A DNA stretch of 64,000 bases from Lepidodermella squamata. Its lineage: Eukaryota; Animalia; Gastrotricha. How positions within the stretch are numbered: position 1 is the first letter of the stretch; each line of letters opens with the position of its first letter. The notes beneath the pieces are model-generated. The model worked only from the letters and a program-made list of their open reading frames with translations. It did no database searches and had not been told where the DNA came from. Below, piece after piece: positions 945 through 32,354 of the stretch. The stretch covers positions 2,852,001-2,916,000 of the forward strand of contig JBLDXI010000042.1 of assembly GCA_047495785.1 (NCBI GenBank), written 5' to 3'. The translations under genes and the position numbers were made by a program.

Positions 945-1367
945 TTCATCTTCTCCTTTTATATCAAAAATCACAATATTTAATTGCTTAGATTTTTTGG
1001 CGATTATATATAAATTGTCTCCAATTTTTTTTGGCTTTTCTCAAGAGTTTCATCTCTCCTCATAATTCTGAGAGAAATAAGATGCATGATGCTTTGAAAA
1101 TCTCAATTTTTTGTAAAGCTTTAAAATCCAATTTTTCTGAATATTTTTTTTTGCATATTAATTATCATAATTAACCTTTCTCGCTATTCTTTATTGATCC
1201 CAATTTTAGTCCTCAAAATATTATATTATTTGAAGATCTTCTGTATTTATACTTCCGCATAATACTTTGTTTTATTCAAAACTGCGTTGATTTCGCTGCG
1301 AACCGCGACAAGGATAAGAGAGATAAAAATAAAAAGGAGTTGCGTTAATATTTTTTACCAGCTGATT

Positions 1368-4198
1368 TTATGACGATGCGATTGTTGACGGAGTGATAGC
1401 TCTCTCAACGAGATTTCCTGACCCACTTTGATGAACCTGGAAGAGAAACGATTAAGTAAAAATTGAAGCTCAACAAACTGAAATTATACTTGTAATAGCT
1501 GTAAGGTGAGATTGATTAGGCTCATGGCGATTACTACACAGCTGATAGCTACGTGAACATTCGCGAAACTCGAATCGAGAGCAAGAGCCAGGACAACTGC
1601 CGCCCCGATAAGTATAAATTGAGCGTAAACGGCTGTCCTCAGCAGAGCAATCTCGGGAAACGAAGTTTTCGTTGCCTATTAAACAAAGAAAAAATAATAG
1701 TTCTAGAATTGCGAAGTTTCTGTGATAAGAACTCACTGATCTCAGAGCTATGGAAAGGAAGATCAGTCTACCTAGAAGTAGGCCAATCCAAGCGATTGAT
1801 GCTCCAAGGAGACCTAGCGAGACTTCGGATGATGGCATGTGACAAGCGAACCAAACTTGGCGAATGTTAGTGCTGACTTCAGTTGGGGACGGAAAAAGGT
1901 CCCCATAAACTCTCTCAACTTTCAAGCCATCAATGGATAGCCAGAGAACAAAGAGGATTACCAGAACCACAACCCATACTAAGCCAGCTGTTGCGTATTT
2001 CGAAAACACCTTGCGGGCGGATTTTATCAGCGAGCTCTGATAGCTTGCATTCCCGGCAACTGCTTGCGCCTGCTTGAATCTACGACCTACCTGAGGACTT
2101 GGATGTGATCGAAATAACGACAGGGGTGAAAATCCTCGAGGTACAGCAAATTTGTTGCCAGCTAAAGCAGCCACTGCAGCTGAAAATGTCTCAAGCTTAA
2201 CCCACACAGAAACGAACACCATCCCGCCACCGCTCAAGATCAACGCATAGATAATGGAGCAATTTACGTGTGCATTTCGCTCTATCCCGTACGGAAGACT
2301 GATGACACTTGAGACGAAAATGCAGTTTCCGATTGCGAATGAAACATCGATTGGCGCGAAGTAAAATCTGCTCTTCTTTTTTTGACAACTCTGAATTATC
2401 ATGCAAGGAATGCTGATCGCCATAATAATAGCGGAAATGACTGCAAAATAACGAAAAATAAGGAGTGATGCAAATTCGAAGAAATTCACCTGTGAGGGAT
2501 ATGTAAACTGAATCGTCGATGGCCGGAACGACGGACAAAACTGTTCGAATCGAGTCTCCCGGGGGTTTATTGTTTAACGTACCCCATTTGATCCCATTAG
2601 GACCCAGAACGAGTGGTTTGGATGTGCTACTAACGTTGAAGTAACCGATTGAGTTACGCAACAAGCTCCCGTTGCTGTTTTTGAGTAATTGGTTGAAGAC
2701 AATTGGGGCGAATCCTTTCGTGTTATCCTCAGTTTCAGCCTCGTATTCGAAATCGCATCGCTGGCCGCTTAAACGGAAGTTATACAGACTTTTCACCATG
2801 GTCTCGAAGAACCATTTTCCGTTGTTTTGAAAGTTAGGGGCGCTAGTTACCCAATTCGACAAAGTATCGTTACCTGTTGGGATTAAATTATTCTCAGAAT
2901 CAAGTTCAATTATCTATGTCTTACGAGTATTTAGGAACGTTTCCGTTGAGTTTAACCAAGCAGCCATTAGCAGTGTCAAATCGTAAAGCATAATTGGCCA
3001 TAAGGGCCATAGTGAATTCGAACTAAGATTATCTGATATTTGCGACTGAATTCCGGTCAGGACTTGATTAGCAGAAAACCCGCTGATGTCGACTGCAGAC
3101 GGTCCTAATACCTCGGCTTTCGTGTTAGGATTACCAAACGTGAAAAACCCATCCATCACGTCTACGAGCATAGCTTCCGTGCACCATTTGTACCTGGTTG
3201 GATCGCTTGGACTGAACACTGTTAAAGACATATAGAAAATCGCAATGCCTTTTCCGTAAAGGTTGTATCTGTGGAGGAAGCATGCTAATCTTGCACCGAA
3301 GTTGCTGTTGATGTAGATTATCCGTGGGTTGTTACTTGCCAGCTCCTCCACAGCCATTCGCATGTCATTTTCATCGGGAGCGCCAAATGCGGGTACCTTA
3401 TGCAATTGCAAAGTCATATTTCGCTTTTCCAGGTCTCTCTGCATGGCGATTTCCATTGCGTTGTAGCTAGGGCCGATGTCTGACAAGACGTGAAGCCTTC
3501 GCCAGCCCATGGCTTGCATGAAGTAAACTAGGGAGAGTTGCACGTTGGTTATCAGAGGTCCACTGACGTAGTATCCAGCAAATTTGCGGCGATCAAGGAT
3601 GATTTCAGGGGTTGAGGATGTTCCGGTCATCGCCACGAAGTTGTAGTGGTGAGTGAAGTGACCTCTGCAGGAAATCAAGGTAAAATAACCATGAAATCAG
3701 AACTACGACTTACGTCCAAGTCTGGGCTCCGCAAAGAGTTGCGATCATCATTGGAACACGATTATATGCAACATCAGCCGAGTTGAATCTTCTGACTGTC
3801 GCAGGGATTGTATCAGCTCGTGCGCACTGCAATCATTTTGAAAGTATAGAACAATAATGAATAAGGTTAACTTTTCTTACAGTGTCGTCAAAAGGTTCTA
3901 CCACTAGATCGTAATCTTGAAGAAGCCCTGGAACGGTTTCGATTCTATCCAGAGCGAGTTGAATAGCTTTCGATGCCATTGCGCGCATAGGAAAAACTGC
4001 GCCGGCGTAATTTATCGACGCAAGGATTGTTATCAACTTTTTTCCTGGTCTAGGAGTACCAGTGAAGTTGAGGCCTCCCAAAGCTGTCGAGGCGATATAT
4101 CTCGGAATCGGGCTGTTCAACGGAATGCTCATCTGCTGCCCAGTTGAACACATAAGACTACCGAGTAAGATGCTGAGAGCAACAATTAACTGGGGCAT
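1368..4198 (-). CDS. Class C (GABA-B-like) GPCR, copy 1: signal peptide, ANF/periplasmic-binding-type ectodomain, 7TM; multi-exon
   Basis: ORFs 3833-4198, 2914-3678, 2197-2862 and 1470-2489 are separated by ~50-bp introns. Motifs AIQLALDRI..LLQDYDL..DD, MGWRR, WGTLNNKPPGD, then hydrophobic helices and LWLSIDGL..FAC. Stop TAA at 1368-1370, homologous to copy 2. Confidence 0.75.
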
Positions 4199-4955
4199 GT
4201 TTTAACTGAATAAAATTTAATACTGAGGTCGAGTTCCTTTTGGTTGAGAATGGCTTTTGAAGCGCATCTAGGCTGGTAGCGTGGTGTTGATTAAGGAAGT
4301 TGCGAACGCGTGGGAAAATCGGGGAAATTCCACAGCACCAGCAGGAGGGCGTCGAAAGAATCGGATGCACTTTGCTTCGTTAATTCCTAATGGTGTTTTC
4401 ACACGTTCTACGCTTGGACACCTGATTCATTTAAAAGGTAAAGGAACCGGAAGCGAATAGGGTTTTTGCAATACGATATTCATTTTTTTGCACCTAAAAC
4501 TAGTAGAAACTTTTAAACGTCTCTACAAACTCGGTGCACTAAGCAGCAATTATCGTAGCAGGGTAACGTACTACGTACTGCCCTGAAATGAAGCATTTTT
4601 TCAAACGCATAGGCAGATATTTATCAGAGGCCCGTTCATTTATTCAATAATCAATCGCAATTCTTTTGAAAATTCGGTTCAGTTTGATAATTTTTCAGAT
4701 GTTAGAGACTGATTGAGAGACATAAGGCACGGAAGCGGTGGCAGATTGTTGATGTTTGTCATAAAACTCAGGTTACGACGATTCAGGTCACGGTAATGTT
4801 GTGTACCCAATTTCGCTAAATGCAGGTGCGATTTCAACCATTTCCAAATTGCGGCATTTCTTCAATTTTAAAAATAAGTTGTTGAAGGTTGGGTGAAGAG
4901 TATTCACAAGCTTGTTAAAAGCACCGTTCCAAGCTTCTGTGTCAGTAGTAGGGGG

Positions 4956-6910
4956 GGGTCATTCCAGGTCAAATCGACCGACGACCCAACCCATGTTCTC
5001 AGATCATCCCCGAACTAATTTTATCGGATAGAGCTCAAAAAATTAGGAAACTTTTACTCTTGTGACTTTTTTCAATGACGCAAGGGCGGGCTTCTAAAAT
5101 TAAAAAACGAAAACCGACTCTAAATCATAGCAACGGTTGCCAGGTTGCTAGATCTCACCAGGTATGAACGCTCAAGGCGAGCTCTTTTTATCAGACCATC
5201 ACGTCGACGTACTCGAGCGATTAGAGCGGCGTCTTGCTTTACCTTGACTTACTGTTTTCCAGCATGGTTAAAAGAACTTAAAAAATTAGCCAAAAATCGC
5301 TATTTTCGAATCAATTTTTCACCCTTTCGAACGCGGTTTTATACCTCAAATTTGATACCATCGGATTCAGCGCAAAAAGTTGTATAACATATGTCAAAAT
5401 CACGAGGGTAATTTTCTTCTATACCGAGAATTAATTTTACGAAGATTGCCAAAAAGCATAGCCAGTAAGCACACCATGTTTACAATTATAATTAGGTTTT
5501 GCAAATGGAATTTTCTGAATGCGTGATTGCTAATGATTTAACAGTCATTATCCATGTAATTTATATTAAACTTGACGGGTAGCAAAGCAAATCTTACAAC
5601 TGGGCTTACGGGAAGCTGGTAGAGGTTTACTGTCACCTGTGTCACTGAAGAACTTATGAACAACGAATGCCTATTTGCCTTATCCGCAGTGGGACAGCAG
5701 TGGAAGCTGGAGGATATTCCATTTAGGTCTAGGAACTTCATCTATATAAGTCTAGGAACTTCATAGGTATATAATTCCTCCGCTGTACTAAATGTCACAT
5801 GTTATAATTTCTTTCAATACTCTTCAAAGCCTCACCTTAGACTTGCCTTACAACCAAAAAATCGAATTTCGGAACAATATGGAGCTGGTAGCTTAAGTTT
5901 AACGTATATACTTATTTACCGAATACAGTCTTATTTAAATATGAATTCGGATTTATTTGGCTTTCAACAATGGCGCAGAGTGGGACTTGCCGCAAGCAAC
6001 CGCAAAAGCCAGTGTGAGGGCGTATAACCGTAGAGAGGCTGTGATGGAAACGGCATGAAAAGGCTAAGCACTAAACTCTATCACTTAATGAATCGAACAA
6101 TGATGACCTGCCATTCGTAGCCTTGGGAAATAACTCAAGTGAACAAGGGATTACAGTACAAGATTTGCTAATTGGTGATCAAATGATATCATCAAGGGCA
6201 TAACTAGCCTTACGTCAATTGTGGGGCTTGGTGTGGCATATCATGAGCTAGTATCCGTTGTATTTTGATGTCGGTCTATTCCATAAGCTTGTATGGATAT
6301 ACGGCATTCGATCACGAGTTCGGGTGAAACAACTATAAAAATGAACAGATCATCCCTCAATCATCCACGTGCTTGAAGAGAGCGCGTGTTCTATCTATAA
6401 TATTATATGCTTTTTGGCAATCTTCGTAAAATTAATTCTCGGTATAGAAGAAAATTACCCTCGTGATTTTGACATATGTTATACAACTTTTTGCGCTGAA
6501 TCCGATGGTATCAAATTTGAGGTATAAAACCGCGTTCGAAAGGGTGAAAAATTTATTCGAAAATAGCGATTTTTGGCTAATTTTTTAAGTTCTTTTAACC
6601 ATGCTGGAAAACAGTAAGTCAAGGTAAAGCAAGACGCCGCTCTAATCGCTCGAGTACGTCGACGTGATGGTCTGATAAAAAGAGCTCGCCTTGAGCGTTC
6701 ATACCTGGTGAGATCTAGCAACCTGGCAACCGTTGCTATGATTTAGAGTCGGTTTTCGTTTTTTAATTTTAGAAGCCCGCCCTTGCGTCATTGAAAAAAG
6801 TCACAAGAGTAAAAGTTTCCTAATTTTTTGAGCTCTATCCGATAAAATTAGTTCGGGGATGATCTGAGAACATGGGTTGGGTCGTCGGTCGATTTGACCT
6901 GGAATGACCC
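4956..6910. mobile_element. Non-autonomous DNA transposon / foldback element with 505-bp TIRs (4956-5460 and 6406-6910) and a ~945-bp core
   Basis: GGGTCATTCCAGGTCAAATCGACCG... at 4956 is the reverse complement of ...CGGTCGATTTGACCTGGAATGACCC ending at 6910. The arms are nearly identical (one mismatch seen near 5312/6554), which explains the identical ORFs 5145-5387(+) and 6479-6721(-). TSD not clear. Confidence 0.9.
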
Positions 6911-6948
6911 GAGGGGAGGAAAAGTTAACGGTTTTTCCGATTTGAATA

Positions 6949-7497
6949 TTTCCCGCGCGACCTTGACCTTGAGCTAACCCTAACCCTAACCCTAACCCTA
7001 ACAGGATTCCTTAACCCTAACCCTAGGCCTAGGGCTTAACCCTAACCCTAACCCTAGGGCTTAACCCTAATCCTTAACCCTAACCCTAATCGATAATCCC
7101 TAGCCGATAACCGATTTCGATCAACCGATATTGATTGATTTTGAATTAATTTCCCGCCAAAATAGGCGTAACCCTAACCCTAATCCTTAACACTATTCTT
7201 AGGGCTTAACCCTAATCCTTAACACTATTCCTAGGGCTTAACCATAATCATTAACACTAACCCTAATCGATAATCCCTAACCCTAGTCGATATCGATTGA
7301 TTTTTCCAACGGAAAAATAATTTGAAATTTTCCCGCCAAAAACTATTTTACCGCCAAATATTCCCGCCAAAACCCTAGTCAAAATTTGAATTTTCCAAAA
7401 TTCCAACGGTCACTCGCTAGTTTTTGAAAAGGAAAATTGAAACTTTCCCGCCAACCATTATTTCAGCGCCAAAATACCAAAATATGACCTTGACTCT
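6949..7497. promoter_or_regulatory. Cluster of E2F-like TTTCCCGCC(AAA) motifs plus TGACCTTGAC nuclear-receptor-like half-site repeats
   Basis: TTTCCCGC(C/G) at 6949, 7150, 7329 and 7444; TTCCCGCCAAAA at 7361; near-matches at 7348 and 7461; GACCTTGACCTT at 6959 and TGACCTTGAC at ~7485. Function is inferred from consensus only. Confidence 0.45.
6974..7286. repeat. Degenerate telomeric-type (CCCTAA)n arrays in two blocks (~6974-7100, ~7169-7286)
   Basis: Runs of ctaaccctaaccctaacc with variants cctagggcttaacc and cctaatccttaac. Confidence 0.9.
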
Positions 7498-7979
7498 TCC
7501 GGCATAAATTCAAACTTCTAAAATGTAATGGGCATGTGACGCAAAAGTAACCAATGCATGAGTCATCTTGCAAGAGTGAAAGTACCCTCTGGAATTGTCA
7601 CGTTTTACGAGACCAAGCCAAGCTTTTATGTCTCGCCAACGGTCAGCTGCGAATATTCTTAAAATGTCAGCTTGACATAACGGCAACTTGCTATGATAAT
7701 AAATGCGGAGTCAACCTTTTCGTCATATGTGTAGATTCCGCTCTGGTAATGAAAGACATTTCAGCATACAAAAGTTAGTAAAACTCGACTGCATTTTTCT
7801 ATTTGTATCCTTGGATTGAGAAAAGCCATGGAGTGCAATCTTTACATTTACTTCGATTAGATTTCGATAGCGATTTCGAAATACAAAGGTTAATATAATG
7901 TTTAATAATATTGTAATAATGTTGATTATTTTTTTTATATACAGGTCACCAGTTGGCATTTTCCTCCTCCACAGGAGGA

Positions 7980-8416
7980 CTAGGGGGGCTGTGGAGGAGG
8001 ATGAGGTACGAGTAATCCGTGAATGTCCCATAATATCTGGATGATAGTGTTGTAGCTGGCTACTGAGTTCTGCAAGTGATCATACATTTGACCTGCCTCG
8101 TCGTAGCTGAAGAAAGAAAAATATAAGGTATGTTGAATTTTTTGACATTAAATACGTACAGGTTTACAAATAGTTGAAAGAAAATTTCAGCTATTTGAGG
8201 ATTAGCCATTTCAGGATAAGTAGATAAGTAAAGTTGCCAAGTAAAATGATGCGTAAGAATATGACAAGGTATTGTACAGTTGATATAAATTTTGTAAGAT
8301 TTCGCCAAAAAATGTTTTTGAAAACTGAGCGTTGCATCTCGGCACCATTTATACAATGTATATGCAGAGAAGTCGTTAACAGGTAGAATGTAATAAAAAG
8401 CAAGTAAATTCGTCAT
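7980..8416 (-). CDS. Small hypothetical protein of the Maverick-like element (2 exons), possibly frameshifted at its 3' end
   Basis: ORF 8060-8416 splices through a GT-AG intron at 8107-8159 to YDEAGQMYDHLQNSVASYNTIIQILWDIHGLLVPHPPPQPP*. Confidence 0.4.
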
Positions 8417-8451
8417 GTTACCTCATTTTCTCATTTTTCTTGGAATATTAA

Positions 8452-9000
8452 ATGCTTGAAATTGATGTTACTGTGCAAAATGTTGTTTCCACACTCTCGC
8501 TGGGGGTACATTTTGATCTGCGGAAAATTATTCACCTCTTCAAAATGGTTGAGCTTAAACAAAAGTTTCCAAATGCTCTCGTCATTAAAGAGCCGCACTT
8601 CAACGCTTTGCTATTTAAAAACGGGAAAGTAGTGCTTTTTACGAAGAATCCTGAACTGGCAAAAATTTATGGGCGAAAACTGGCAAGGAAACTACAGCGA
8701 CAAGACAACACTGCCATAAAGGTATCTAAGATTCGCCTGGTAAACAGTACTCTTGCGGGAAAGATGCCAACTGGAATAAACATAACTGAGGCCTTAATAG
8801 CTCGTGTTGCCAAACTCTGTGCGCGAGCGATATATGATGATACTAGATTTCCGGCACTGCGGTGTAAAAATGTGACCAATGGTTCAACATGCGTGAATGT
8901 ATTTTCGTCGGGGTGGATAATAGTGACTGGCATTAAAGATTTAACTACACCTCTGACGCAGCTTGAAACTATATTATATGCGATACTATATGAGAAATAA
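8452..9000 (+). CDS. Divergent TATA-binding protein (TBP)-like protein, core domain only, intronless
   Basis: Two TBP repeats: VQNVVST..FDLRKI..FP..LLFKNGKVV and IRLVN..YDDTRFPAL..VFSSGWIIVTG; 182 aa. Confidence 0.85.
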   Translation: MLEIDVTVQNVVSTLSLGVHFDLRKIIHLFKMVELKQKFPNALVIKEPHFNALLFKNGKVVLFTKNPELAKIYGRKLARKLQRQDNTAIKVSKIRLVNSTLAGKMPTGINITEALIARVAKLCARAIYDDTRFPALRCKNVTNGSTCVNVFSSGWIIVTGIKDLTTPLTQLETILYAILYEK

Positions 9001-9942
9001 AAATTGGACGCGACACACACTCGACTGAATGTTAATAGCCTACGTCCATGCTACTATGTAGTAGTAGCATGCCATTGAAACTGCGTACATTTATTCTTAA
9101 ATTTAGCGTCTATGATCTTAGGCTGTTCCGATGCTATGGAAAGAAGAACTGCTGTAATAAAAATTAAGATTTCGCAATGAAACTCTGGGGAATCAATTCT
9201 AATCTGGAGCAGTTATCCACAATTCAAGTTCATCGTTGTACTGTTTCGCCAATGCCTTTAATGTTGACGGAATCATCACATTCCGTCGCAGTTTGCTCGA
9301 ACGAAGTTATTCATAGAAATTAGAAATAGACCGTTTTACACACACTGGAAATCGATGGGATCCTCAGGTATGATTTGTCATGACTACATTTAATTCAAAA
9401 TAGCTAAATTTCCATTTCATTCATTCAGATCATATATGGAACAGGATCCGGATAAGTGTAAGTTCTTAAAGACATAAATCAATCAAAATTCATTGTATTT
9501 TTTTTTTCTTAGACGCTGCCCGATGACATGTGTCAATATGGTGCGCCGTTAAGTAATAAAAGTTTTCAAGCAAGCCGATTGTACGCGATTTAATGTGCGG
9601 ATATTGTAATAAAAATTGAGAAACACTTGAAATCGGGTCGCTTTTTATTACAACGCGTGCTGATCAACAATAAAAATTCAGAAACAGTTGCTAAATAAGC
9701 AATAAAAATATGAATTTGGAGACATCATTCGGAAACGAGTAAACCGTTGAAAAGTCATTTAAATAAGCTAACGTTCTCGAGGAATGAAACTTGACAGTTT
9801 TCAAATGAGCATTATATCCCTATGAGTTTTTAGCCGAACCCAATTTATTATCATTATTCGTGAAAATCGGACAACTATTTTCCATCTTCATTAGTGAAAA
9901 ATGGATTTTCACGGGTTTTTCTGCTATTCTCCGCGATTCAAG

Positions 9943-12390
9943 ATGGACGTTGTCAAATATTCCTCGCAAGCGATCGATCCTTCAGATCAGATAGGGTTTG
10001 GATTTGAAGACGACGCCGATGAGGATGATGAAAGCGGCTTGGAAATACTGAAACTTTTATCGAAAATTAATTCGCAATTCGAAGGATTGGTAGAGAAATT
10101 GCGAAACTCTTTCCATCCATGGTAGGAACTCGTTATTTAAGAGTAAAAATGAAACTTTTTAACTGAAAATTAGGGATTACGTTCGGGTTGAACTTTTCCA
10201 CCCCAGCTTGAATTTTCCAGTAAATACGAAATACCTTCAAGTACAGGAATTGACTGGTGCTATGATCATGGACGAGATAAACTCGGTGATGCAGTCTAGA
10301 CTTTCAATAGCCATGAACAACGGTTCGATTTAATATTACTGGAACTTGGAATGATTTTCATTATTAAAATTAGGCTGGAGCTACAACATCTATAGAATTG
10401 CAGTGGGTGAACTGGAAGATGGCGAGCAAGGCTACGGTGGCAAGGGTGGTAAACGACGCCGACTTGAGGAAACAATGGTTGACTTCATAATGGGTCACAA
10501 TGAAGTCCTTCCAGTGGAAAATGATGCTGATAATCACTGTCTCTTCAGGTCAATCGCACATTCTCTGTTATATCGTGATCACAAACAACCCCGGCCGGGC
10601 TGCCAACCTCACGGTGACTATGACAGACTACGGCCAGGATTTTCGAAAGACCGCATGTCAACATCCGAACTAGCGAATCTGGAAAGGGCTGCAATCAAAG
10701 CATATCAGGGCGAACTAGCACTGAAACTCATGAATGCCGCGGGAATCCAACCTAATCAAATGGCATATGGTCTTGACGAATTCAAGCGGGTTATTGATAC
10801 GATTGGCTTACCCTATCGAGGCAATAATTATTTTAAACAAACTAAAATTCGATAAAAACTTTTGGAAATTAACAGGTGTTATTTACAACTTCATGGATAA
10901 GCAAACGATGGCTGTACATCCGGAAGCAGGACTCACAATTGCCGATGAGCGAAAAATTTTGATCGGTTATATCAACAACAGAGCCTTGGCATCACATCGC
11001 GAAAGTGGGCGGTACGATCGAAGCGTGGGACATTATGTTGGATTTACAAGTAGGAGAAATTTATAAAATGCATAATTTGAAATTCATTCCTAAAAAATGA
11101 AACAGGCATTAGCACAATTTCTGGGGAGAAGATGATGTGCCCGCGATGTTTCATGTTGCACAAGAAAAACAACCTGCAGCACACGTGCCGTTTTAAGTGC
11201 AACAGGTGCCAGCGAGCCGGCGCAACATGTCGTGACTCGAACGAACGAACAATGTTATGCGGGAGTTGTGGCTTATTTTTCCACGGGGCCCTGTGTTTCA
11301 TGAATCACCAGACACCTGAAACACCCGGAGCTGCGACCATTTGCCAGTCCTACTTCATGTGCGGCAAGTGCGGTAGGAAAATTGGGATAGCGCAAAAGGG
11401 AAAACATAACTGTGAGTTGATGAAATGTGAAAAAATCCACCTTAATTTTTGCTACAATGTGACTATAGGTCAATCTCGGACGTGTCGAACTTGTAACGGG
11501 CCAATAAGCTCGGAGGAGGGTGACGAGGAACACAGCTGTGTCATTCAACCAGGCAGGCTTCGCAAAGATCCTCTGCGAATTGCCGGAGCTTGGGATACCG
11601 AAACAATTCAGTTGGAAACCGGAGAACTAGTGCCAGTCGTGATAGTGTTGAACATGTTTTGTGACTCGTGTCAACACATGCTTGTCACCGCAACGTGTCC
11701 CAAATCGTGTACTGGTGACGACCCGCGCCAGCAGATCTTCGTTTTAACTGGTGCGGATTCCACCTGTGTAAACCAGTTTATGAAATTTTTGCTGCGAGAA
11801 AAGTATTCTGGAATTTTACTTCTCTCTCATAATGGTTCAAGGTGGGAAAATCGAAGAGTTAGATTTCGAAAATTTAATTTAATCTCGCTATAGATTCGAT
11901 AATTTTATGGTCCTGAAATGGTTACAACAGCACGATTATCAGTTCGATCATATTTACAAAAATAACACAATTATCGAGCTATCTGTTGAGAAAAAAGCAA
12001 TCGTATTTCGAGACTTTTACCTCCTCTCCATGTCATCGTTGGCTTCGCTTTTCCACTGCTTCGGTCTGGATGAGGATGCGAATGCAACTGGAAAGGAATT
12101 TTTTCCCTATAAATTGCTGACATCAGCGAATTTCCTTTCCGATAACGAGCGAGACTTCCCAACCTTGGATGACTATGACACAAACCGGCTTTCGGATTCA
12201 AAACTCGCTGAGTTGCAACAATTCTTAGCTGAAAATCAGCATCAAAAGTTCCACCTTCGTAATCAGCTGATTAATTACTGCCAGTCCGATGTAAATTTGC
12301 TGCATAGAGCTTTAATCAAGTTCCGATCGATGTTGCGAGAATTCACAACCCGAGACGACAAGTGTCCGGAAGGCATCGACGCTATATGGG
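9943..12390 (+). pseudogene. Polinton/Maverick protein-primed DNA polymerase B (N-terminal region, Zn fingers, 3'-5' exonuclease), intron-containing, truncated before the polymerase domain
   Basis: The spliced product has DYVRVELFHPSL..LT..IMDEINSVMQS, NDADNHCLFRSIA, GHY..TS, a Cys-rich region, ExoI WDTET, ExoII HNGSRFD, FRDFY..SL..L, GKEFFPY and ExoIII YCQSDV. Introns at 10122-10173, 10323-10373, 10821-10875 (GC-AG), 11050-11105, 11412-11468 and 11842-11893; a further donor at 12391 has no recognisable continuation. Confidence 0.85.
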
Positions 12391-12727
12391 GTATGATTAT
12401 AAAAGAGTCGCTAATCTACTTTTTACGGTCGATCTTTGGCAAGCCATTTGAACAGCACAGAAACTTTTGAAGACGACTAACCAACCTGAAGAGTAGCCAA
12501 TTTTTTTTCATTGGAGTCACATCTGGCTGGTTCCGGCCTTCTGGGACCGGCTCCAACTGGGAGAAGACTAAACACCTATCCACTGGCGAATTCGATTGAT
12601 AACTTTGATCGAAACCAGAACGAACCCAGATCAAACCAAACAATGAGTTAACAAAGATTGCTCGAAAAATCGCCTGAAATCAGCTAGGCCGATAGGGCGA
12701 TTTCGACCACTTTGACCACTAGGGATT

Positions 12728-15548
12728 CTAGGACGATGCGATTCTTGAGGGGGTGATAACTCTCTGTACGCTATTTCTTGCTAGAGTTTGATAAACCTGA
12801 GAAATACCAAAGTAAATTGAAGTTAAAAGAGTCACAGTTAAAATTACTTGTAACAGCTGAATACTGATATTTATGAGACTCATGGCGATTACTACACAGC
12901 TGATGGCCACGTGCACATTCGTGAAACTGGAATCGAGAGCAAAAGCAAGTACCACCGCCGCCCCGATAAGTATAAATTGAGAGTAAACGGTGGTTCGCAG
13001 CAAAGCAATCTCGGCAAACGAATCTTTCGATGCCTGTAATAGGAGGAAAACTTACTTATCGCGAAATTTCTATGGTAAAATAACTCACTGATTTCAGAGC
13101 GATGGAGAGGAAAGCCAATCTCCCTAAAAGTAGACCAATCCAAGCGATTGATGCTCCAAGGAGACCTAGCGAGACTTCGGATGATGGCGTGTGACAAGCG
13201 AACCAAACTTGGCGAATGTTAGTGCTGACTTCAGTTGGGGACGGAAAAAGGTCCCCGTAAATTCTCTCAACTTTCAAGCCATCGATGGATAGCCAGAGAA
13301 CAAAGAGGATTACCAGAACCACAACCCATGCTAAGCCAGCAGTTGCGTATTTCCAAGACACCTTACGAGCGGTCTTGATTAAGGAGTTCTGATAGCTTGC
13401 ATGAGACTGGTTAGATTTCGGCCCAGGAAGAAGACGGCTGGGATTTGATCGAAATGATGCCAATGGTGATATCCCTTGACGTATAGAGAATTTGTTTTCC
13501 GCCAAAGCCACGACTGCAGCTGAAAATGTTTCGAGTTTTGCCCAGACAGAAGCGAATGCGATCCCACCACCGCTCAAGATAAAAACATACGATAGGGAAC
13601 AATTTACGTGGACATTTGTCTCAATTCCGAATGGCAGAGAAATGACACTCGAGACGAAAATGCAGTTTCCGATTGCGAATGCAACATCGATTGGCGCGAA
13701 GTAAAACTTTCCCTTGTTCTTTTGACAACTCTGAATTATCATGCAAGGAATGCTGATCGCCAAAATTATTGACGAAATGACTGAACAAGATCAAAAAATT
13801 CTAACGATTTTTGCGAATTTAAAACGCTCTCACCTGTGAGGCCTATATACACTGAATCATCAATTGCTGGAACGACGGACAAAACTGTTCGAATCGAGTC
13901 TCCCGGGGGTTTATTGTTTAACGTACCCCATTTGATCCCATTAGGACCCAGAACGAGTGGTTTGGATGTGCTGCTAACGTTGAAGTAACCAATCGAGCTA
14001 CGCGACAAGCTCCCGTTGCCGGCCTTGAGAACTTGAGTGAAGACAATCGGCGCAAAACCTTTCGAGTTATCTTCAGTTTCAGCCTCGTATTCAAAATTGG
14101 CTCGTTGACCGCTTAAACGGAAGTCATACAGACTTTTCACCATGGTATGGAAGAACCATTTTCCGTTGTTTTGAAAGTTAGGGCCGCTAGTTACCCAATT
14201 TAACAAAGTATCGTTACCTGTAGAGATAAAACAATTCTCGGAGTTAAGCTCCATTAACCGACTTACGAGTCTTTAGAAATTTTTCGGTCGAGTTCAACCA
14301 AGCAGCTATTAGCAGTGTCAAATCGTAAAGCATGAATGGCCATAAGGGCCAAAGTGAGTTTGTGCTAAGATTGTCCGAAATTTGCGACTGAATTCCGGTC
14401 ATAACTTGATTAGCAGAAAAGCCGCTGATATCGACCGAAGACGGTCCCAATACCTCGGCTTTCGTATTGGGACTACCAAACGTGAATAGTCCATCCATCA
14501 CATCAACAAGCATAGCTTCCGTGCACCATTTGTACTTGCTTGGGTCGCTTGGACTGAATACGGTTGTAGATATAAAAAATAATGCGAATCCTCTCCCATA
14601 AAGGTTGTATCTGTGGAGGAAGCATGCTACTCTCGCACCGAAGTTACTGTTGATGTAAATTATGCGTGGATTGTTGCTTGCCAAATCTTCCACAGCCATT
14701 CGCATGTCATTTTCATCGGGAGCGCCAAAAGCAGGTATTTTGTGCAACCCTAATGTCATGTTTCGTTTTTCTAGCTCTCTCTGTAGGGCAATTTCCATGA
14801 CGTTGTAGCTTGGGCCGATGTCGGACAGTACATAAAGCCGACGCCAGCCCATGGCTTGCATGAAGTAAACGAGGGAAAGTTGGACATTGGTTATCAGAGG
14901 TCCACTGACGTAATAGCCGGCGTATTTACGGCGATCAAGGATAATGTCGGGCGTTGAAGATGTCCCAGTCATTGCCACGAAGTTGTAGTGGTGAGTGAAG
15001 TGACCTCTGTGAGATAATTAATAAAATAAAATCTGAAAAGAGTCATACAGCTTACGTCCAAGTTTGAGCCCCACAGAGAGTTGCGATCATCATTGGAACA
15101 CGATTACATCCAGCATCAGCCGAGTTCAGTCGTTTGACTGTCGCAGCAATTGTATCAACTCTTCCGCACTGCAATCATTTTGAATATATTTCTGAATTAG
15201 GTAAACCTCTCTTACCGTGTCGTCGAAGGGTTCTACCACTAGATCGTAATCTTGGAGAAGCCCTGGAACGGTTTCGATTCTATCCAGAGCAAGTTGAATA
15301 GCTTTGGATGCCATTGCGCGCATAGGAAAAACTGCGCCGGCGTAATTTATCGACGCAAGAATTGTTAACAGTTTTTTTCCTGGTCTGGATGAACCGCTAA
15401 AGTTTAGTCCTCCTAGGGCGGTCGACGCGATATATCTCGGGATTGGGCTGTTTAGCGGAATGCTCATCTGCTGCCAAGTTGATCGCACTAAACTACCGAG
15501 TAAGACGACGCTAACAGCAACGACGGAAGATCTAATGGATTTGTTCAT
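12728..15548 (-). CDS. Class C (GABA-B-like) GPCR, copy 2; multi-exon paralogue of 1368-4198
   Basis: ORFs 15126-15560, 14244-14978, 13766-14254 and 13056-13763 are nearly collinear with copy 1 and share intron positions. ATG at 15548 (MNKSIRSSVVAVSVVLL), stop at 12728. Confidence 0.75.
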
Positions 15549-16183: not shown

Positions 16184-17563
16184 TTAATTATCGTCGCCGT
16201 CTGTGAAGCATGGTGGGACGGGGCTTGAGTTGATAGCCTTGCCTTGAAAGTAAGAGCATAGATACTGACCTCCTTTGACTGGCCAACCCCCTCCGCCATG
16301 TACATTCACGCTGTCAAACAAAATACCAGTTGCTGGATTCGAAACATTTGCAACCATAATGCCCGGCGAAAGAACTCCGTCGTAGATATTCACGCGCTGC
16401 AGCGTGATATTCCTCAGCGAAATGTTCGGGTTAGTTTGGCATTTCGTATTAAAAGCTGGGTACAAAAACGAGCAGCCGGTACCGGTGCCATGGGGCTGGT
16501 GTTGCTGCTGAGTGCCTATAAAAATTGCCCACCAAAGCGGACGGTGAATGTTGATATCACGATAAGCGATGTTAGCAATAAGACCAGTGCCGTGGTCTCC
16601 CGGGTTTGGTTTGATATAAATAGCTTTCAGGGGCGTCGTGAAGTTGACATCAACAACTTCGACACCATCGATGCAGTTCACGTTTGGATTTGGAGGGACT
16701 GAGCCGATACTCATGCCCACGCCTAACACGACGTTAGAATGGGTGATTGTGATGTTTCTAGTGCAATTCGACCCGAATTGACTTCTATCACCCGCATTCA
16801 TCGGCTTGACAGCAACAGCGTCGTCAAAGTTTTCAATCGTCACATTTGTGATGAGTACGTCTTTCCCAGAGACGTCGATGCCATCCGTATTGAGCGGAAA
16901 AGTCGGAATAGTGATTCCTAGATGATTTTCAACAAGCTTCCCAGCGCTCTTCAGGATTTTCTTCTGACCATCGACATCAACATAGATCGTCAAATTCCAG
17001 ATGCGCGCACCAAAAACATCTGTTATGTCTATGTGGTATTGAGGGGCGTTTTCAACTCTGAATCCAGTTAGGGTTACATTAGAGGACGAATCGATTACTA
17101 AAAGGTTAGGCCGATGGTCTTGACCTTTAACTATCACGAAATTCCACCATTCGTAGCCATTTCCCAATATTGAACCGGATCCTTGAATAGCCAGGTTTGT
17201 TGCATTGGTGAAGCGAATCATGTTGTAGACGTTATCAGGGTACCCGGGCCAGTTTTGGGCAAAGTTATCGGTGTATGCAGAAAGGTTGCCATCAAGTTGG
17301 ATTACTAAGTTTGATACTCTATCAATTTTCAGCTCAGCTGGTAGGAAAGCGTAGGTCTTGCCACCAGGAATCAATACTTGGCGATTCATGGGGTCTGAAG
17401 ACGCATTGGCTGCGGCGACTGCGCTGGCAAAGGCAGCCCCGTTGGCAAGAGCTTGGGTTTTGGAAAATACTCCGGCAACGGCTCCGAAACTTTCGATATT
17501 AGTTTGCTGCAGCGAGAATCTGCAGAGGCTGATAACCATCAGAATAGTAGCCGTGAGCTTCAT
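16184..17563 (-). CDS. Secreted glycoside hydrolase family 28 (polygalacturonase-like), intronless
   Basis: Signal peptide; FGAVAG, GNGYEWW, RP, NTDGIDV, NFDDAVAVK, GMSIGS and YIK motifs; beta-helix composition. Confidence 0.9.
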   Translation of the reverse strand: MKLTATILMVISLCRFSLQQTNIESFGAVAGVFSKTQALANGAAFASAVAAANASSDPMNRQVLIPGGKTYAFLPAELKIDRVSNLVIQLDGNLSAYTDNFAQNWPGYPDNVYNMIRFTNATNLAIQGSGSILGNGYEWWNFVIVKGQDHRPNLLVIDSSSNVTLTGFRVENAPQYHIDITDVFGARIWNLTIYVDVDGQKKILKSAGKLVENHLGITIPTFPLNTDGIDVSGKDVLITNVTIENFDDAVAVKPMNAGDRSQFGSNCTRNITITHSNVVLGVGMSIGSVPPNPNVNCIDGVEVVDVNFTTPLKAIYIKPNPGDHGTGLIANIAYRDINIHRPLWWAIFIGTQQQHQPHGTGTGCSFLYPAFNTKCQTNPNISLRNITLQRVNIYDGVLSPGIMVANVSNPATGILFDSVNVHGGGGWPVKGGQYLCSYFQGKAINSSPVPPCFTDGDDN

Positions 17564-18388
17564 TTTGCTGCCTGCTTCAGTTGCAATTTAGTTTGAATGA
17601 CTGACAAAATAATGCCAACCAGACAATCTGAAACTTGCCGGTGGTGAGGCCTATTTTCTAGACCATTTTTTATCTGCATGAGATAAGCAAAACGAATAGC
17701 ATGACCGATGACAAGTAGAATAAGGTTGTGGTGCACTTTATTTATAGCTCAGCAGTTTTACAGCAAAATGAGCTATTTCCAACTTGAATTTACCCTCGAG
17801 CGTGGTGAATTTACCCTCCATAGCTGCAATTTTATTTTATTTAATTCAGATATTTTTATATTTTCAAACTTGAATCCGAGATCCGAAGGCATTTTGTGCG
17901 ATCTGCAATCTTATGCGTTTTTTCCATCAATTCATCACTTCCGGCAGTTCGGACATTTTTGTGCGGTGCAATTTCACACGCGCTAGGTTGATCCGACGTT
18001 TTCTGAAAGCAACTTTGAAGTAATTATCTTAAAAACATGTTTTCAGTTTTCAAAGATGACAAGATTTACGCTTTTAATAATCACTAACAAGATTTGAACT
18101 AGAGGGGTACGAACGAGCAGTGTCATCGTTTTCAGTTCGGTGTACCGCGCATCCAATTTCATAGAAGGAATTATACTTGCCCAGAGTCTATTCGTTAAGG
18201 AATGTCGGGGCAAATCGTCAATCAGCTCGATTGAAGTGACTAAATGTCCAGTAGCACGCGTTTCCAACAAATGCGTAAAACCATTCATAAAAAGATATTT
18301 TTTGCAAACATTTTATGGATCGCACGATCAAGTAGCAAGGCGGAGTCATGGATACGAGCCAACTGACCAATCAGCGTGCGGATTTTTT

Positions 18389-20797
18389 TCAACTTACAAC
18401 CTCAAACACAATGGATGTCAAAGCAGACGAGATCAGCGTAAAGAACGCTATAACGATTTGTTGTTCAGTGACTTGCCCGTTCAATATGACGCATATTAGC
18501 AGAGCTGCGACGATTAACACCAAAGCATTTATCTTGGCAACAGCTGCATATGTGAAGTCCATCCTGCCGAGAGTGAATGCAATCTTCCGTTTCTTGATCA
18601 CGTTTGGATAGTCTCTTTTCAATAGATACCACGTTAGAAGACCAATGACCAGAATAAAGATGTTGAAACAAATAGCTGAAAAAACCCAAGCTGTTTGGTA
18701 ATTTGATGAACATGATCTGACAGAAGTGGTGAGAAATGTATCAATATCATCGTCATAAAATTTCGAAATGACCATCTCACTGCAGGTGACAGGATCAATA
18801 ATAAGCCAAACAATCAAGAACGTAGTTAAGGTGGCTGTAAGGGCACTGCAAATTGAGTTTGAAAGCTTTGCTGCTTTTCGGGCCAACTTTTTCTCCAGGC
18901 TAGAATCATTTAGGCGATCAGGTTTGCGTAACTGCGATGCGTTCGATGCTAGTCTGTCAAAACTAGCCATTTCTTGGCAAGAATCATCCGAGTCACGCTT
19001 GCTTATATTACCGGAGCCGAACGTGTTTAAACCAGATTTTTTCGATGACGCAGCACGTTGCGGCTCAAAGTGATTCGCGGCGACTGGGTCAAGCATGAGA
19101 ACGAAAACAGCCGACAAGGATCGACAGACCAAGAGGTCATGCATACTTGTGATTCCTAATACAAGAAAAACAGTCCTGACGATCGAAATAAGCTCTGAAT
19201 TAGGGCTGGCCGTGAACGCAACAGCTGATGTATTCGCAACTATACAGCTCAGAGTTCCTACAGTAAGAACAAAGGCGGAATTTGTCTTCTTCTTTGAAGT
19301 GCAGAGAATGATGGCTGCCTCGACTGCTTGAATAAAGGATATTAGGGCGCCCAATGCTAACACAGAAATAAAAACGCCATCTGAAACCCGTTCATCGATA
19401 TCAATGTGGAAAGCTCCGTCTCTGGGCGGCTTTTTCCAAGCAAGCCAGTCGAAGTTTTGCCCTGCACTGCTTCGTATTTTGTAGTCCGTGTAATCTGCAC
19501 TAGCAGATGCCCCCTCGTAATTCATTTCGAAGACAGTTTTCAGGCCACCTTGATCTTGCGCGACGCTGATTACTGCAATGTCACCTTCTTGCTGACCGTT
19601 CGCACGACTGAAGCGTACTTTTGACAGTCGAAGACCCACCGCACTGACCGCCATCATCGATCGATTAACGTACTCGCTGATCATTCGTGGTTTATTTTCG
19701 TAATCGGAGAGAGTCAAATTAGCTTGCTGTCTCAGCTGTTTATCCGCGTGATCTAAGACGAGGGCGGCGAACATGGCTGTGTCGTAGTAAAGGTATCGCC
19801 GCTCGTTATCCGGAGGCTTCGAACCATTCAAACGTCGATCGAGTTCTGTATCGTAATCCGCCAAAGTATGACCGATTGATGACGCTTCACTGGCATTTGT
19901 CTTTCGAAAAATTGGTCCAATGAAAAATGTGTACCTTTGCTGCTCGAGGACAATGTCCCTCGTACAATTCGGGTAAGGATTTGGGGGAACTGCTCCTGGT
20001 GGAGTGTAAGCCGAAGTCGTGGTTATGAACACATACCTCTCTCCCGTAATACCAGCTTTGTAGGCTAAGCAGTACAATGGCCATAGATTAGCTGTCAGTG
20101 GAGTGTACAGCACGATTATTCTGACATCTGCAGCTTTGATGGAATCAATGAGCGTTTGATCAACCGTGATAGAGATACTGAATACCGGCACGGTGAGATT
20201 CCTCGACAGAGCTAATTTTTGAATTTCCAGCGAGCCAATGTAGTCATTGAGACTAGCTACAGTGCAAGCTACAGCAAATCGACGCCACTTTCCAATGAAC
20301 TCGATGAACTGAACCAAAGCTTTTATGTAAGGATCATTACTCCATGTTTGAAGAAACAGATTAGGATATCTGACGCGGTTGGTTAGTTGAGTTGCTTGAC
20401 AATTAGTGCTCAGAAGAACTGAGTCGTAGTGATGCAGTAAGGAACCCATCACCTGGCAGCTTGCCGACTGAAATCCTCCAATAGCGAGGGCTGATTTTAC
20501 TGGAGATGTTAATCCATTACCAGACCGGTTGTTGTAATAGTTGGCAATCACAACAGCAGATCGGTCTCCGAGAGTTTCATCGTCAAATATTGGAACGAGT
20601 TCATAATCAGGCAGTATGTCTGAGCGGTTGTTGATAGTTTCGAAAACAATGTTGGCGCTATGAAAGCAAGGTTCACAGAACTTTGCTGGGCGTTTTGCCA
20701 CTGTTATGATATCCAAAACTTGAAGCTTTTTAGGCTTTGCAGCGCTCGAAGACGAAGCCAGAAAGACGATGGTAATAATATAGCAATGTTGAAACAT
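18389..20797 (-). CDS. Class C (GABA-B-like) GPCR with ANF-type ectodomain, single exon
   Basis: Signal peptide MFQHCYIITIVFLASSSSA; INNRSDILPDYEL, LTNRVRYPNLF, KWRR, DVRIIV, YVFI, YDT, KPPRDG, then 7TM with WLIIDP..CSS. Confidence 0.8.
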   Translation of the reverse strand: MFQHCYIITIVFLASSSSAAKPKKLQVLDIITVAKRPAKFCEPCFHSANIVFETINNRSDILPDYELVPIFDDETLGDRSAVVIANYYNNRSGNGLTSPVKSALAIGGFQSASCQVMGSLLHHYDSVLLSTNCQATQLTNRVRYPNLFLQTWSNDPYIKALVQFIEFIGKWRRFAVACTVASLNDYIGSLEIQKLALSRNLTVPVFSISITVDQTLIDSIKAADVRIIVLYTPLTANLWPLYCLAYKAGITGERYVFITTTSAYTPPGAVPPNPYPNCTRDIVLEQQRYTFFIGPIFRKTNASEASSIGHTLADYDTELDRRLNGSKPPDNERRYLYYDTAMFAALVLDHADKQLRQQANLTLSDYENKPRMISEYVNRSMMAVSAVGLRLSKVRFSRANGQQEGDIAVISVAQDQGGLKTVFEMNYEGASASADYTDYKIRSSAGQNFDWLAWKKPPRDGAFHIDIDERVSDGVFISVLALGALISFIQAVEAAIILCTSKKKTNSAFVLTVGTLSCIVANTSAVAFTASPNSELISIVRTVFLVLGITSMHDLLVCRSLSAVFVLMLDPVAANHFEPQRAASSKKSGLNTFGSGNISKRDSDDSCQEMASFDRLASNASQLRKPDRLNDSSLEKKLARKAAKLSNSICSALTATLTTFLIVWLIIDPVTCSEMVISKFYDDDIDTFLTTSVRSCSSNYQTAWVFSAICFNIFILVIGLLTWYLLKRDYPNVIKKRKIAFTLGRMDFTYAAVAKINALVLIVAALLICVILNGQVTEQQIVIAFFTLISSALTSIVFEVVS

Positions 20798-20900
20798 TTG
20801 AATTAATGAAGATGATAAATACTCGAGATTAAAATGATTGGATTTACCTTGAAGCTGATGCTTTCTAATTACCAAGACTTCGCCTCCCCGCGGTCTCTCT

Positions 20901-21403
20901 TCCTCTCCCCATTTACATCGCCCCCGCCGTGGCGAGCGAGCTACGTTTGATCTGAGCTTAGCTCGTTAATTTTGTCACGTTTTCTTTTCGACATGCGCAA
21001 AATAAAAAAATTTCGCTGAGCATTGACTCTTTCTCATACATAGGTAATAAAATAAAAACGAGACATAACTTTAACCTCGTTTCAGCGTCGATTTATAAAA
21101 ACATAAATGTTATTTTTGGGACACAAGAACTTTTGATATTTTTCGACATAAAAAAAGTGGAGTGTATATAGTCTTTTCATGCTAAGAATACGCAGAATAG
21201 CAGTACCTTGTTTTTGAAGGTGTCCGAGGTTGAAGGTATGAATTTACCTTCCGCATTTACCTTCGGCAGAATACTGCCTCATTCGCCGGGAAGGCGCGTT
21301 ATTGCCCCGCGGAAAGAGATATTTCCTCTCCCCATTTACATCGCCCCCGTCGTGGCGAGCGAGTTACGTTTGCTCTGAGCTTACAGCTCGTTAATTTTGT
21401 CAG
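20901..21403. repeat. Pair of ~80-100-bp direct repeats (20901-~20980, 21324-~21403); probable transposon remnant
   Basis: tcctctccccatttacatcgcccccg.cgtggcgagcgag.tacgtttg.tctgagctta..gctcgttaattttgtca occurs twice. Confidence 0.75.
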
Positions 21404-32159: not shown

Positions 32160-32354
32160 TTACTGTAATGATAATTCGTTTAGTTTATCAAAAAACTTTT
32201 AAATTAACATTCCAATGTCGGAAATAAATTCTACATTTTCCTAATGTTTTACCAAAAAACACAATGCACTCTTGTTTATTTTGAGTAAACATAAATTAAT
32301 CATTATTTGCAGCCGACCATAATTGCCTTTCTGATTATTTTTTAATATGACATA

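Follow-up and report, generated by a model that had tools for sequence, protein, structure and literature searches.

A solitary front half of a Polinton-type protein-primed DNA polymerase gene with six predicted spliceosomal introns in the gastrotrich Lepidodermella squamata

A 64,000-nucleotide stretch of the genome of the gastrotrich Lepidodermella squamata (NCBI GenBank assembly GCA_047495785.1, contig JBLDXI010000042.1, positions 2,852,001 to 2,916,000 of the forward strand; hereafter the window, with positions counted from its first letter) contains a region homologous to the front half of the protein-primed DNA polymerase B (pPolB) of Polinton/Maverick elements, interrupted by six short A+T-rich segments. 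Judged from its sequence, the locus is a solitary pPolB front half, neither an element nor a polymerase. We consider it very likely that the six segments are real introns, with predicted splicing, because their termini, size, composition, frame behavior, junctions with respect to homologs and higher variability all agree. On balance, we lean towards the view that the locus is a solitary, 3'-truncated pPolB relic with six predicted spliceosomal introns, which would derive from an intron-bearing, nuclear-resident Polinton/Maverick lineage.

Gene model and predicted introns

On the + strand, positions 9898-12470 hold a succession of open segments in three frames. Upon removal of six A+T-rich segments of 51-57 bp, a pPolB frame runs from the ATG at 9943 to the TGA at 12468-12470, and this spliced reading of 2205 nt (734 codons and the TGA) has no internal stops or shifts. 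A second in-frame ATG is present at 9901, upstream of the one that begins exon 1. The exons and predicted introns are as follows.

9943..10121, + strand: exon 1, open frame; acidic N-terminus and start of the terminal-protein-like part
10122..10173, + strand: predicted intron 1, 52 bp, GTAGGA...ATTAG, 75% A+T; frame-shifting, with stops
10174..10322, + strand: exon 2, terminal-protein-like (D1); tblastn matches from relatives P0113 and P0145
10323..10373, + strand: predicted intron 2, 51 bp, GTTCGA...ATTAG, 76% A+T; in-frame length, two stops
10374..10820, + strand: exon 3, part of the vOTU-like protease; its conserved Cys lies in NHCLF (residue 165 in the joined reading)
10821..10875, + strand: predicted intron 3, 55 bp, GC donor GAG/GCAATA...TAACAG, 80% A+T
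10876..11049, + strand: exon 4, 174 nt, phase 1-1; conserved vOTU His (GHY, residue 305)
11050..11105, + strand: predicted intron 4, 56 bp, GTAGGA...AACAG, 77% A+T; frame-shifting, with stops
11106..11411, + strand: exon 5, Cys/His-rich zinc-type region
11412..11468, + strand: predicted intron 5, 57 bp, GTGAGT...CTATAG; in frame, stop-free
11469..11841, + strand: exon 6, last zinc-type module, ExoI (D455, E457) and start of ExoII (SHNGS)
11842..11893, + strand: predicted intron 6, 52 bp, GTGGGA...CTATAG; splits HNGSR/FD
11894..12470, + strand: exon 7, remaining exonuclease domain, with ExoII D539 and ExoIII Y665/D669

A frame-keeping search that began with the ATG of position 9943 and permitted GT/GC...AG gaps of 40-120 nt recovered five of the segments unaided (10122-10173, 10323-10373, 10821-10875, 11050-11105 and 11842-11893), together with a spurious extension beyond the stop codon. 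All five contain in-frame stops, and three of the five have a length that is not divisible by three. Of all six, the segment 11412-11468 has the best termini; it is both in frame and open, and therefore the reading frame does not require its removal. A first-pass annotation of the region, made from the letters alone, had proposed that each intron restores the frame. Inspection of intron 2 by eye revealed a sole GT donor before the stop and a sole in-frame acceptor, and its sequence is unchanged in a DNA contig of the sequencing run X4.

As a control for chance, the same chaining routine was applied to the reverse complement and to 40 shuffles of the region. The real strand scored 2081 with 5 introns and the reverse complement 1277 with 11, while the shuffles had a mean of 1103 and a maximum of 1280, with about 14 introns. 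Shuffled sequence is thus bridged easily, so that open-frame chaining alone is a permissive and weak argument and the case rests on homology. These figures bear on the rival explanation that the segments are not introns and that the region is a decaying pseudogene, its frame breaks bridged by chance GT/GC-AG pairs. Such pairs are easily found, shuffles being carried to about 1100 nt with some 14 'introns'; moreover, the donors are weak in five of the six segments, and splicing is predicted. Decay, however, yields point stops and shifts of 1-2 nt rather than five A+T-rich inserts of 51-56 bp ending where homology resumes, and it would hardly leave 2205 exon nucleotides without a stop or shift or a chain so far above the maximum of the 40 shuffles. 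We regard this explanation as very improbable. The view of the first-pass annotation that the fragmentation is not random decay is borne out, in that six host-sized GT/GC-AG segments restore the frame and the conserved motifs.

The six segments resemble the host introns of the window in size and A+T content. They comprise 68-80% A+T, as against 50-59% in the exons, and five of them have GT-AG and one has GC-AG termini. Ten hand-picked host introns of the window measure 49-57 bp with 61-87% A+T and carry the donors GTAAG, GTGAG, GTATG or GTAAA, and the agreement of intron sizes with those of host genes, remarked upon in the first pass, is evident in these figures (51-57 versus 49-57 bp). The segments show no similarity to each other or to the rest of the 64-kb window beyond chance matches of 11-19 nt, and therefore, as far as the 64 kb shows, they do not belong to a family of introner copies.

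The GC donor of intron 3 was evaluated by scoring, with the N-terminal profile described below, 221 open-frame links of exons 3 and 4. The segment 10821-10875 is the best GT/GC-AG link, at 425.1 bits. Only six GT-AG links exist, the best two of which have lengths of 112 and 106 bp and reach 411.5 and 408.7 bits, respectively. A GT-AG reading of intron 3, which offers no option of similar size and loses 13.6 and 16.4 bits with these two, was rejected, and the earlier statement that this intron needs a GC donor stands. The C of the GC donor is absent from the variable sites listed in the DNA run X1, which is about 99% alike to the window.

Homology, domains and the missing polymerase half

Exon 7 is the only exon that reaches a Pfam family; it matches DNA_pol_B_2 (PF03175) over positions 20-166 of 468 with an E-value of 3.6e-13 and 49.7 bits (cut-off 25.8). 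A HMMER search with exon 7 against 1.84 billion cluster representatives retrieved 322 proteins at E <=0.001, 6 of them at E <=1e-10, with identities of 25-38% and a top score of 71.9 bits. Neither exon 7 nor exons 5-6 gave a match in word-based searches of longer proteins, and no close relatives with DNA were found with exon 7 in metagenome_contigs or viral_contigs. Among 20 relative clusters that were looked up, the named organisms are the tylenchid nematodes Heterodera schachtii, H. trifolii, Globodera pallida and Aphelenchus avenae. When 150 listed relatives were compared with the window by tblastn, 160 matches were obtained, all on the + strand and with starts at 10166-12500.

An N-terminal profile built from 47 distant pPolB relatives follows the exons in order. 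It matches exon 2 at profile positions 139-185 (E 3.9e-6), exon 3 at 200-298 (E 2.2e-11), exon 5 at 354-444 (E 1.2e-16), exon 6 at 454-580 (E 5.2e-19) and exon 7 at 582-732 (E 1.1e-50); the match of exon 1 at 107-134 is collinear and not significant (E 0.39), and exon 4 has no match by itself. The joined reading, whose 734 codons are collinear with about the first 730 profile positions, is recognized as one domain over profile positions 109-729 with 425.1 bits; when exon 4 is skipped, the score falls to 390.6 bits and the match splits into two domains. A six-frame search of the entire window with this profile returned only four significant segments, all on the + strand within 10163-12467, ordered and in three frames, and the next best match in the window has an E-value of 0.3.

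The junctions between exons are also informative. At junction 6, profile positions 580 and 582 abut and the relative P0105 has a contiguous ...AHNGSRFDN..., in keeping with the first-pass proposal that HNGSR/FD is rebuilt across 11842-11893; the three intron intervals given there are exact. At junction 5, 7 residues face 9 profile positions, and among five readable alignments a gap of about 10-19 residues is seen in three (P0105, P0121, P0075) and little or no gap in P0012 and P0020. Splicing at 11412-11468 yields HNC/QSRTCRTC, as had been noticed at the outset, with the H-x-C-x4-C-x2-C spacing of P0012, P0020, P0075 and P0105, and retention of intron 5 lowers the profile score from 425.1 to 410.6 bits, a loss of 14.5. 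Because profile positions abut at the junctions, we infer that the segments are insertions into uninterrupted coding sequence and not intronized coding sequence.

The joined reading contains, in order, a terminal-protein-like part, a vOTU-like cysteine protease, a Cys/His-rich zinc-type region and a 3'-5' exonuclease with ExoI-III. In an alignment with 40 relatives, the consensus residue is kept in 32 of 36 invariant or near-invariant columns, the four departures being A to S, G to N, W to F and one gap. The column of the vOTU-like Cys165 holds C in 39 of the 40 relatives and that of His305 holds H in 37, and 14 Cys/His ligand positions of the zinc-type region are kept in exons 5-6. The exonuclease residues D455/E457, H533/D539 and Y665/D669 lie in columns invariant among the 40 relatives, and we take them to belong to the motifs ExoI (DxE), ExoII (HNxxxFD) and ExoIII (YxxxD), respectively. 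For the OTU fold, a profile of the 40 relatives matched yeast OTU1 (PDB identifier 3by4_A) over 175 residues with a weak E-value of 0.0042, and in the AlphaFold model of the relative P0105 (mean pLDDT 73.4), C320 begins a helix and H436 begins a strand. Foldseek with the whole P0105 model retrieved phi29-type polymerase and exonuclease chains only and no OTU, and Pfam revealed no OTU or other domain in exons 1-6 and 24 relatives at E up to 5. The pPolB of polintons is laid out as an N-terminal terminal-protein (TP) domain (D1), a vOTU-like cysteine protease, an exonuclease and a palm (PMC11161782), and the layout of the fragment agrees with the TP-vOTU-pPolB order given there. Some pPolB relatives carry an insert similar to Vsr-type mismatch endonucleases at alignment positions 745-827 (PDB identifiers 1odg, 1vsr and 1cw0; E about 6e-4), and some show weak RAP-domain matches; the window gene stops before the Vsr-like region.

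Homology extends in frame to 12446 (...RSIFGKP) and is followed by seven codons and the TGA at 12468-12470, so that the gene end at 12390 given in the first pass does not hold and there is no intron at 12391. About 55% of pPolB, its front, is present. The polymerase half (palm, fingers, TPR1/2 and thumb) was found in none of the six frames of the window with a profile of 54 relatives (best E 0.59), and the fragment, lacking it, cannot polymerize DNA. The original identification as a pPolB is correct as regards homology of the front half and does not extend to a gene that could encode a polymerase. One might suppose that the truncation is only apparent and that an intact full-length gene has its remaining exons outside the window or past a long intron, given that 64 kb was examined and a GT at 12391 could serve as a donor. 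This supposition appears highly unlikely, as in-frame homology continues beyond 12391 to 12446 and then meets the TGA at 12468, a gene on the opposite strand starts about 260-300 bp downstream, the polymerase half has no match in any of the frames across the 64 kb, and all introns recognized in the window (those of the fragment and the ten hand-picked host introns) are at most 57 bp long.

Other element genes were sought with Pfam scans of 125 open reading frames (ORFs) of at least 85 aa across the window, those of the pPolB gene included, and of ORFs of at least 55 aa in 3700-9950. These scans found no rve integrase and no capsid, packaging ATPase or adenain-type protease, with the proviso that divergent capsids may escape Pfam. 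A search for terminal inverted repeats in 8900-13100 found none, the longest inverted pair being 19 nt with 79% complementarity. Just 3' of the gene end lies one repeat.

12659..12713, no strand assigned: high-copy repeat of 55 nt, with many loose ends at 12659 and 12713

In run X1, the summed contig depth is about 3872 in the bin 12612-12715, as against 100-545 over the bins of the gene. In one X1 contig, 12434 is followed directly by 12658, with 223 nt skipped, and a second X1 contig has six differences within 12437-12454; haplotypes thus differ in structure at the 3' break of the pPolB gene. Six relatives of 887-1006 aa (P0105, P0111, P0078, P0009, P0015 and P0030) also match DNA_pol_B_2 in the exonuclease part only, up to about position 200 of 468, and end 18-133 residues past that match; these gene predictions may have been cut short, or copies limited to the front half may form a wider class.

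Variation, locus setting and the origin of the fragment

The DNA run X1 contains 85% of the words sampled from the window. About 0.5% of exon sites differ between the window and the X1 contigs listed, and long coding stretches have the depth of a single contig, which suggests that no paralogue of at least 85% likeness exists among the 23 of 149 contigs listed. In counts that run up to position 12404, the predicted introns (323 bp) contain 5 single-nucleotide polymorphisms (SNPs) and 1 insertion or deletion (indel), and the exons (2139 bp) contain 10 SNPs and no indel. Variation is 3.3 times denser in the introns (P = 0.037 with SNPs alone, 0.013 with the indel), three X1 variants lying inside intron 3 and the indel, present in one X1 contig, being a 1-bp insertion at 11445 in intron 5. 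The exonic differences comprise 3 synonymous and 7 non-synonymous changes, where the neutral expectation is 21% synonymous; this near-neutral ratio shows no constraint, the sample of 10 being too small to speak against moderate constraint.

None of the mapped contigs skips any of the six predicted sites, and the contigs behave as DNA. Run X2 was considered as RNA and rejected, as it covers intergenic DNA and has only 'opposite strands' joints, like low-coverage DNA; over 9700-12800 it shows nine such joints about 90-125 nt apart in low-depth contigs, which look like an artefact of assembly or library. Run X5 contains nothing that matches the locus at 80% likeness.

The window consists of animal-type eukaryotic nuclear DNA, with long exons and very short introns. 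Pfam recognizes the following genes on either side of the fragment.

8452-9000, + strand: TBP-like ORF (Pfam TBP, E 9.9e-19), directly upstream of the pPolB fragment
13056-15017 and 18389-20965, - strand: ANF-receptor-type genes, downstream of the pPolB fragment

The next gene, on the opposite strand, starts about 260-300 bp downstream of the fragment. The 3' tail of this minus-strand neighbor (12724-12799) is 78% identical to 1364-1439, and therefore the pPolB fragment and the TBP-like ORF sit between two paralogous receptor genes. These receptor-type genes (1364-3696 and 12724-15017, both on the - strand) have an intron position and sequence in common (2874-2924 and 14218-14266). The TBP-like ORF is intronless, encodes 182 aa with both TBP-fold repeats and correlates poorly in codon usage with other host genes (r = 0.09); it may be a host TBP-like factor or may have arrived with the element. 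The G+C content at third codon positions (GC3) of the pPolB fragment, 0.48, and its codon usage lie inside the host range, and composition does not separate the fragment from host genes. Elsewhere in the window, Pfam recognizes a glycosyl hydrolase 28, an alpha-2-macroglobulin-type gene, acyl-CoA dehydrogenases, EF-G and others. The glycosyl hydrolase 28 ORF (16184-17587, - strand) and the tandem acyl-CoA dehydrogenase genes (47968-49650 and 50095-51870, + strand), one of which is a single ORF of 591 aa whose closest Atlas clusters are bacterial, are possible cases of horizontal acquisition. An open frame of 1293 aa at 32346-36227 (+ strand) is mucin-like, with 45% Thr+Ser, Pro runs and a signal-like start; it matches no Pfam family and lies in a G+C-rich, strongly C-skewed part of the window.

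We propose that short segments entered an uninterrupted pPolB coding sequence in a nuclear-resident Polinton lineage, in which the polymerase gene would already have been intron-bearing before the present copy arose, that the host spliceosome would remove the six segments, and that this copy may then have lost its 3' half and the neighboring element genes. Most likely, the fragment is not a working gene but a young relic, because its amino-acid variation is near neutral, its 3' break looks random, its tail is polymorphic and its donors are weak.

Several observations weigh against this proposal. As to the introns, the donors (GTAGGA twice, GTTCGA, GCAATA, GTGGGA and one GTGAGT) are weaker than those of the host set, five of the six departing from the GTAAG/GTGAG form and GTTCGA and GCAATA being poor, a contrast that is biased by the choice of host introns by hand for clear or strong donors. 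Intron 5, being in frame, could be retained as coding sequence, and the relatives in the profile are gene predictions, some of them perhaps mispredicted. Among the sequencing runs on record, no RNA-labelled run contains the locus and no junction was seen. As to the relic, all 734 codons are open and every checked catalytic residue is kept; coverage in X1 is that of a single contig, with no paralogue among the 23 of 149 contigs listed; and the closest of the 1.84 billion cluster representatives are only 25-38% identical. Single-contig coverage and great distance fit long-term maintenance better than the recent decay of an active family. Furthermore, no second copy was found by which the introns could be timed relative to the truncation, and the long nuclear co-evolution or intron invasion put forward in the first pass is a conjecture.

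These last points lead to the alternative that the fragment is a domesticated host gene, which lost the polymerase half, kept the front protein for a role in the host, perhaps that of a nuclease or deubiquitinase or one in inhibiting the replication of Polintons, and gained its introns during residence. In addition to the intact spliced frame, the single-contig coverage of long coding stretches with no paralogue of at least 85% among the contigs listed and the great distance from every known relative, domestication would account for the 32 of 36 conserved columns kept, both catalytic centers included, the position between host genes with no other element genes, the host-like GC3 and codon usage, and the denser variation in introns than in exons. 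Against it, the 3:7 ratio of synonymous to non-synonymous changes is near neutral (at a ratio of non-synonymous to synonymous rates, dN/dS, of 0.2, at least 7 of 10 would be non-synonymous with P of about 0.08), haplotypes differ in the last codons and in the 3' flank, the stop follows soon after the end of homology, as from a random break, and neither an orthologue nor a transcript of the locus was found in the sequencing runs on record, metagenome_contigs and viral_contigs. We treat domestication as the main and a serious rival, though a less likely one than the relic. A more specific version, namely that the front half of a Polinton polymerase became a single-copy host gene, acquired all six introns after endogenization and hinders newly arriving Polintons, perhaps through competition for protein-primed initiation or degradation of their DNA ends, is still more doubtful.

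Significance and comparison with known systems

The core genes of Polintons/Mavericks are both described and searched for as ORFs that lack introns. If pPolB introns are real, screens that are blind to introns would score such copies as pseudogenes and under-count intact or expressed elements in invertebrates, and some Polinton lineages at least would depend on host nuclear splicing. The present locus offers a clean case at the level of sequence, with junctions that lose no homologous residues and with one GC donor, in a truncated solitary copy whose splicing is predicted. In previous surveys, short 'introns' from spliced-alignment software were treated as damage (PMC8097293), only intact-looking sequences were retained (PMC10748475), and the fragmented ORFs of nematode Polintons were put down to nonsense mutations and frame-shifting indels (PMC10748475).

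The fragment resembles the pPolB of animal Polintons/Mavericks, in particular the adintovirus 'Alpha' OTU-PolB class (PF03175), in that it passes the Pfam cut-off with exon 7, and it shares its domain order with the 'Alpha' OTU-pfam03175 PolB class as described for adintoviruses (bioRxiv 10.1101/697771). It differs from animal Polinton pPolB genes in the lack of polymerase motifs, integrase, capsid genes and terminal repeats, and its identity to relatives does not exceed 38%. Intact vertebrate Mavericks have intronless ORFs, 'in agreement with Kapitonov and Jurka (2006)' (PMC8097293), and the core genes of nematode Mavericks are intronless, with introns in cargo genes only (bioRxiv 10.1101/2022.07.12.499685), whereas the fragment is interrupted by six short intron-like segments. 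The generalization that Polinton genes are typically intronless, from which the first-pass annotation started, is accordingly stated for core genes, and the available statements cover vertebrates and nematodes only. A literature search, in which subscription journals were poorly covered and sources were available in part, found no report of spliceosomal introns in an animal Polinton pPolB.

Adenoviruses, a nuclear relative of polintons, likewise have their polymerase message spliced by the host, in the E2B polymerase and pre-terminal-protein mRNAs. The adenovirus leaders are spliced over long distances, in contrast to the six minimal introns within the coding body of the fragment. Spliceosomal introns in integrated Polinton-like elements are also seen in dinoflagellates, where introners occur inside maverick-polinton-like proviruses (PMC11957031). 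The dinoflagellate introns are repeated introner copies, whereas the six of the fragment are unrelated to each other and of the minimal host size of 51-57 bp. The loss of a catalytic module from a pPolB that keeps its TP and vOTU parts also has parallels in the pPolB of mavirus and in pPolB-S1H (Tlr1-like) (PMC11161782; PMC5499653). In those proteins the exonuclease is lost and the palm is kept, whereas the fragment has kept the exonuclease and has neither a palm nor a helicase fusion.

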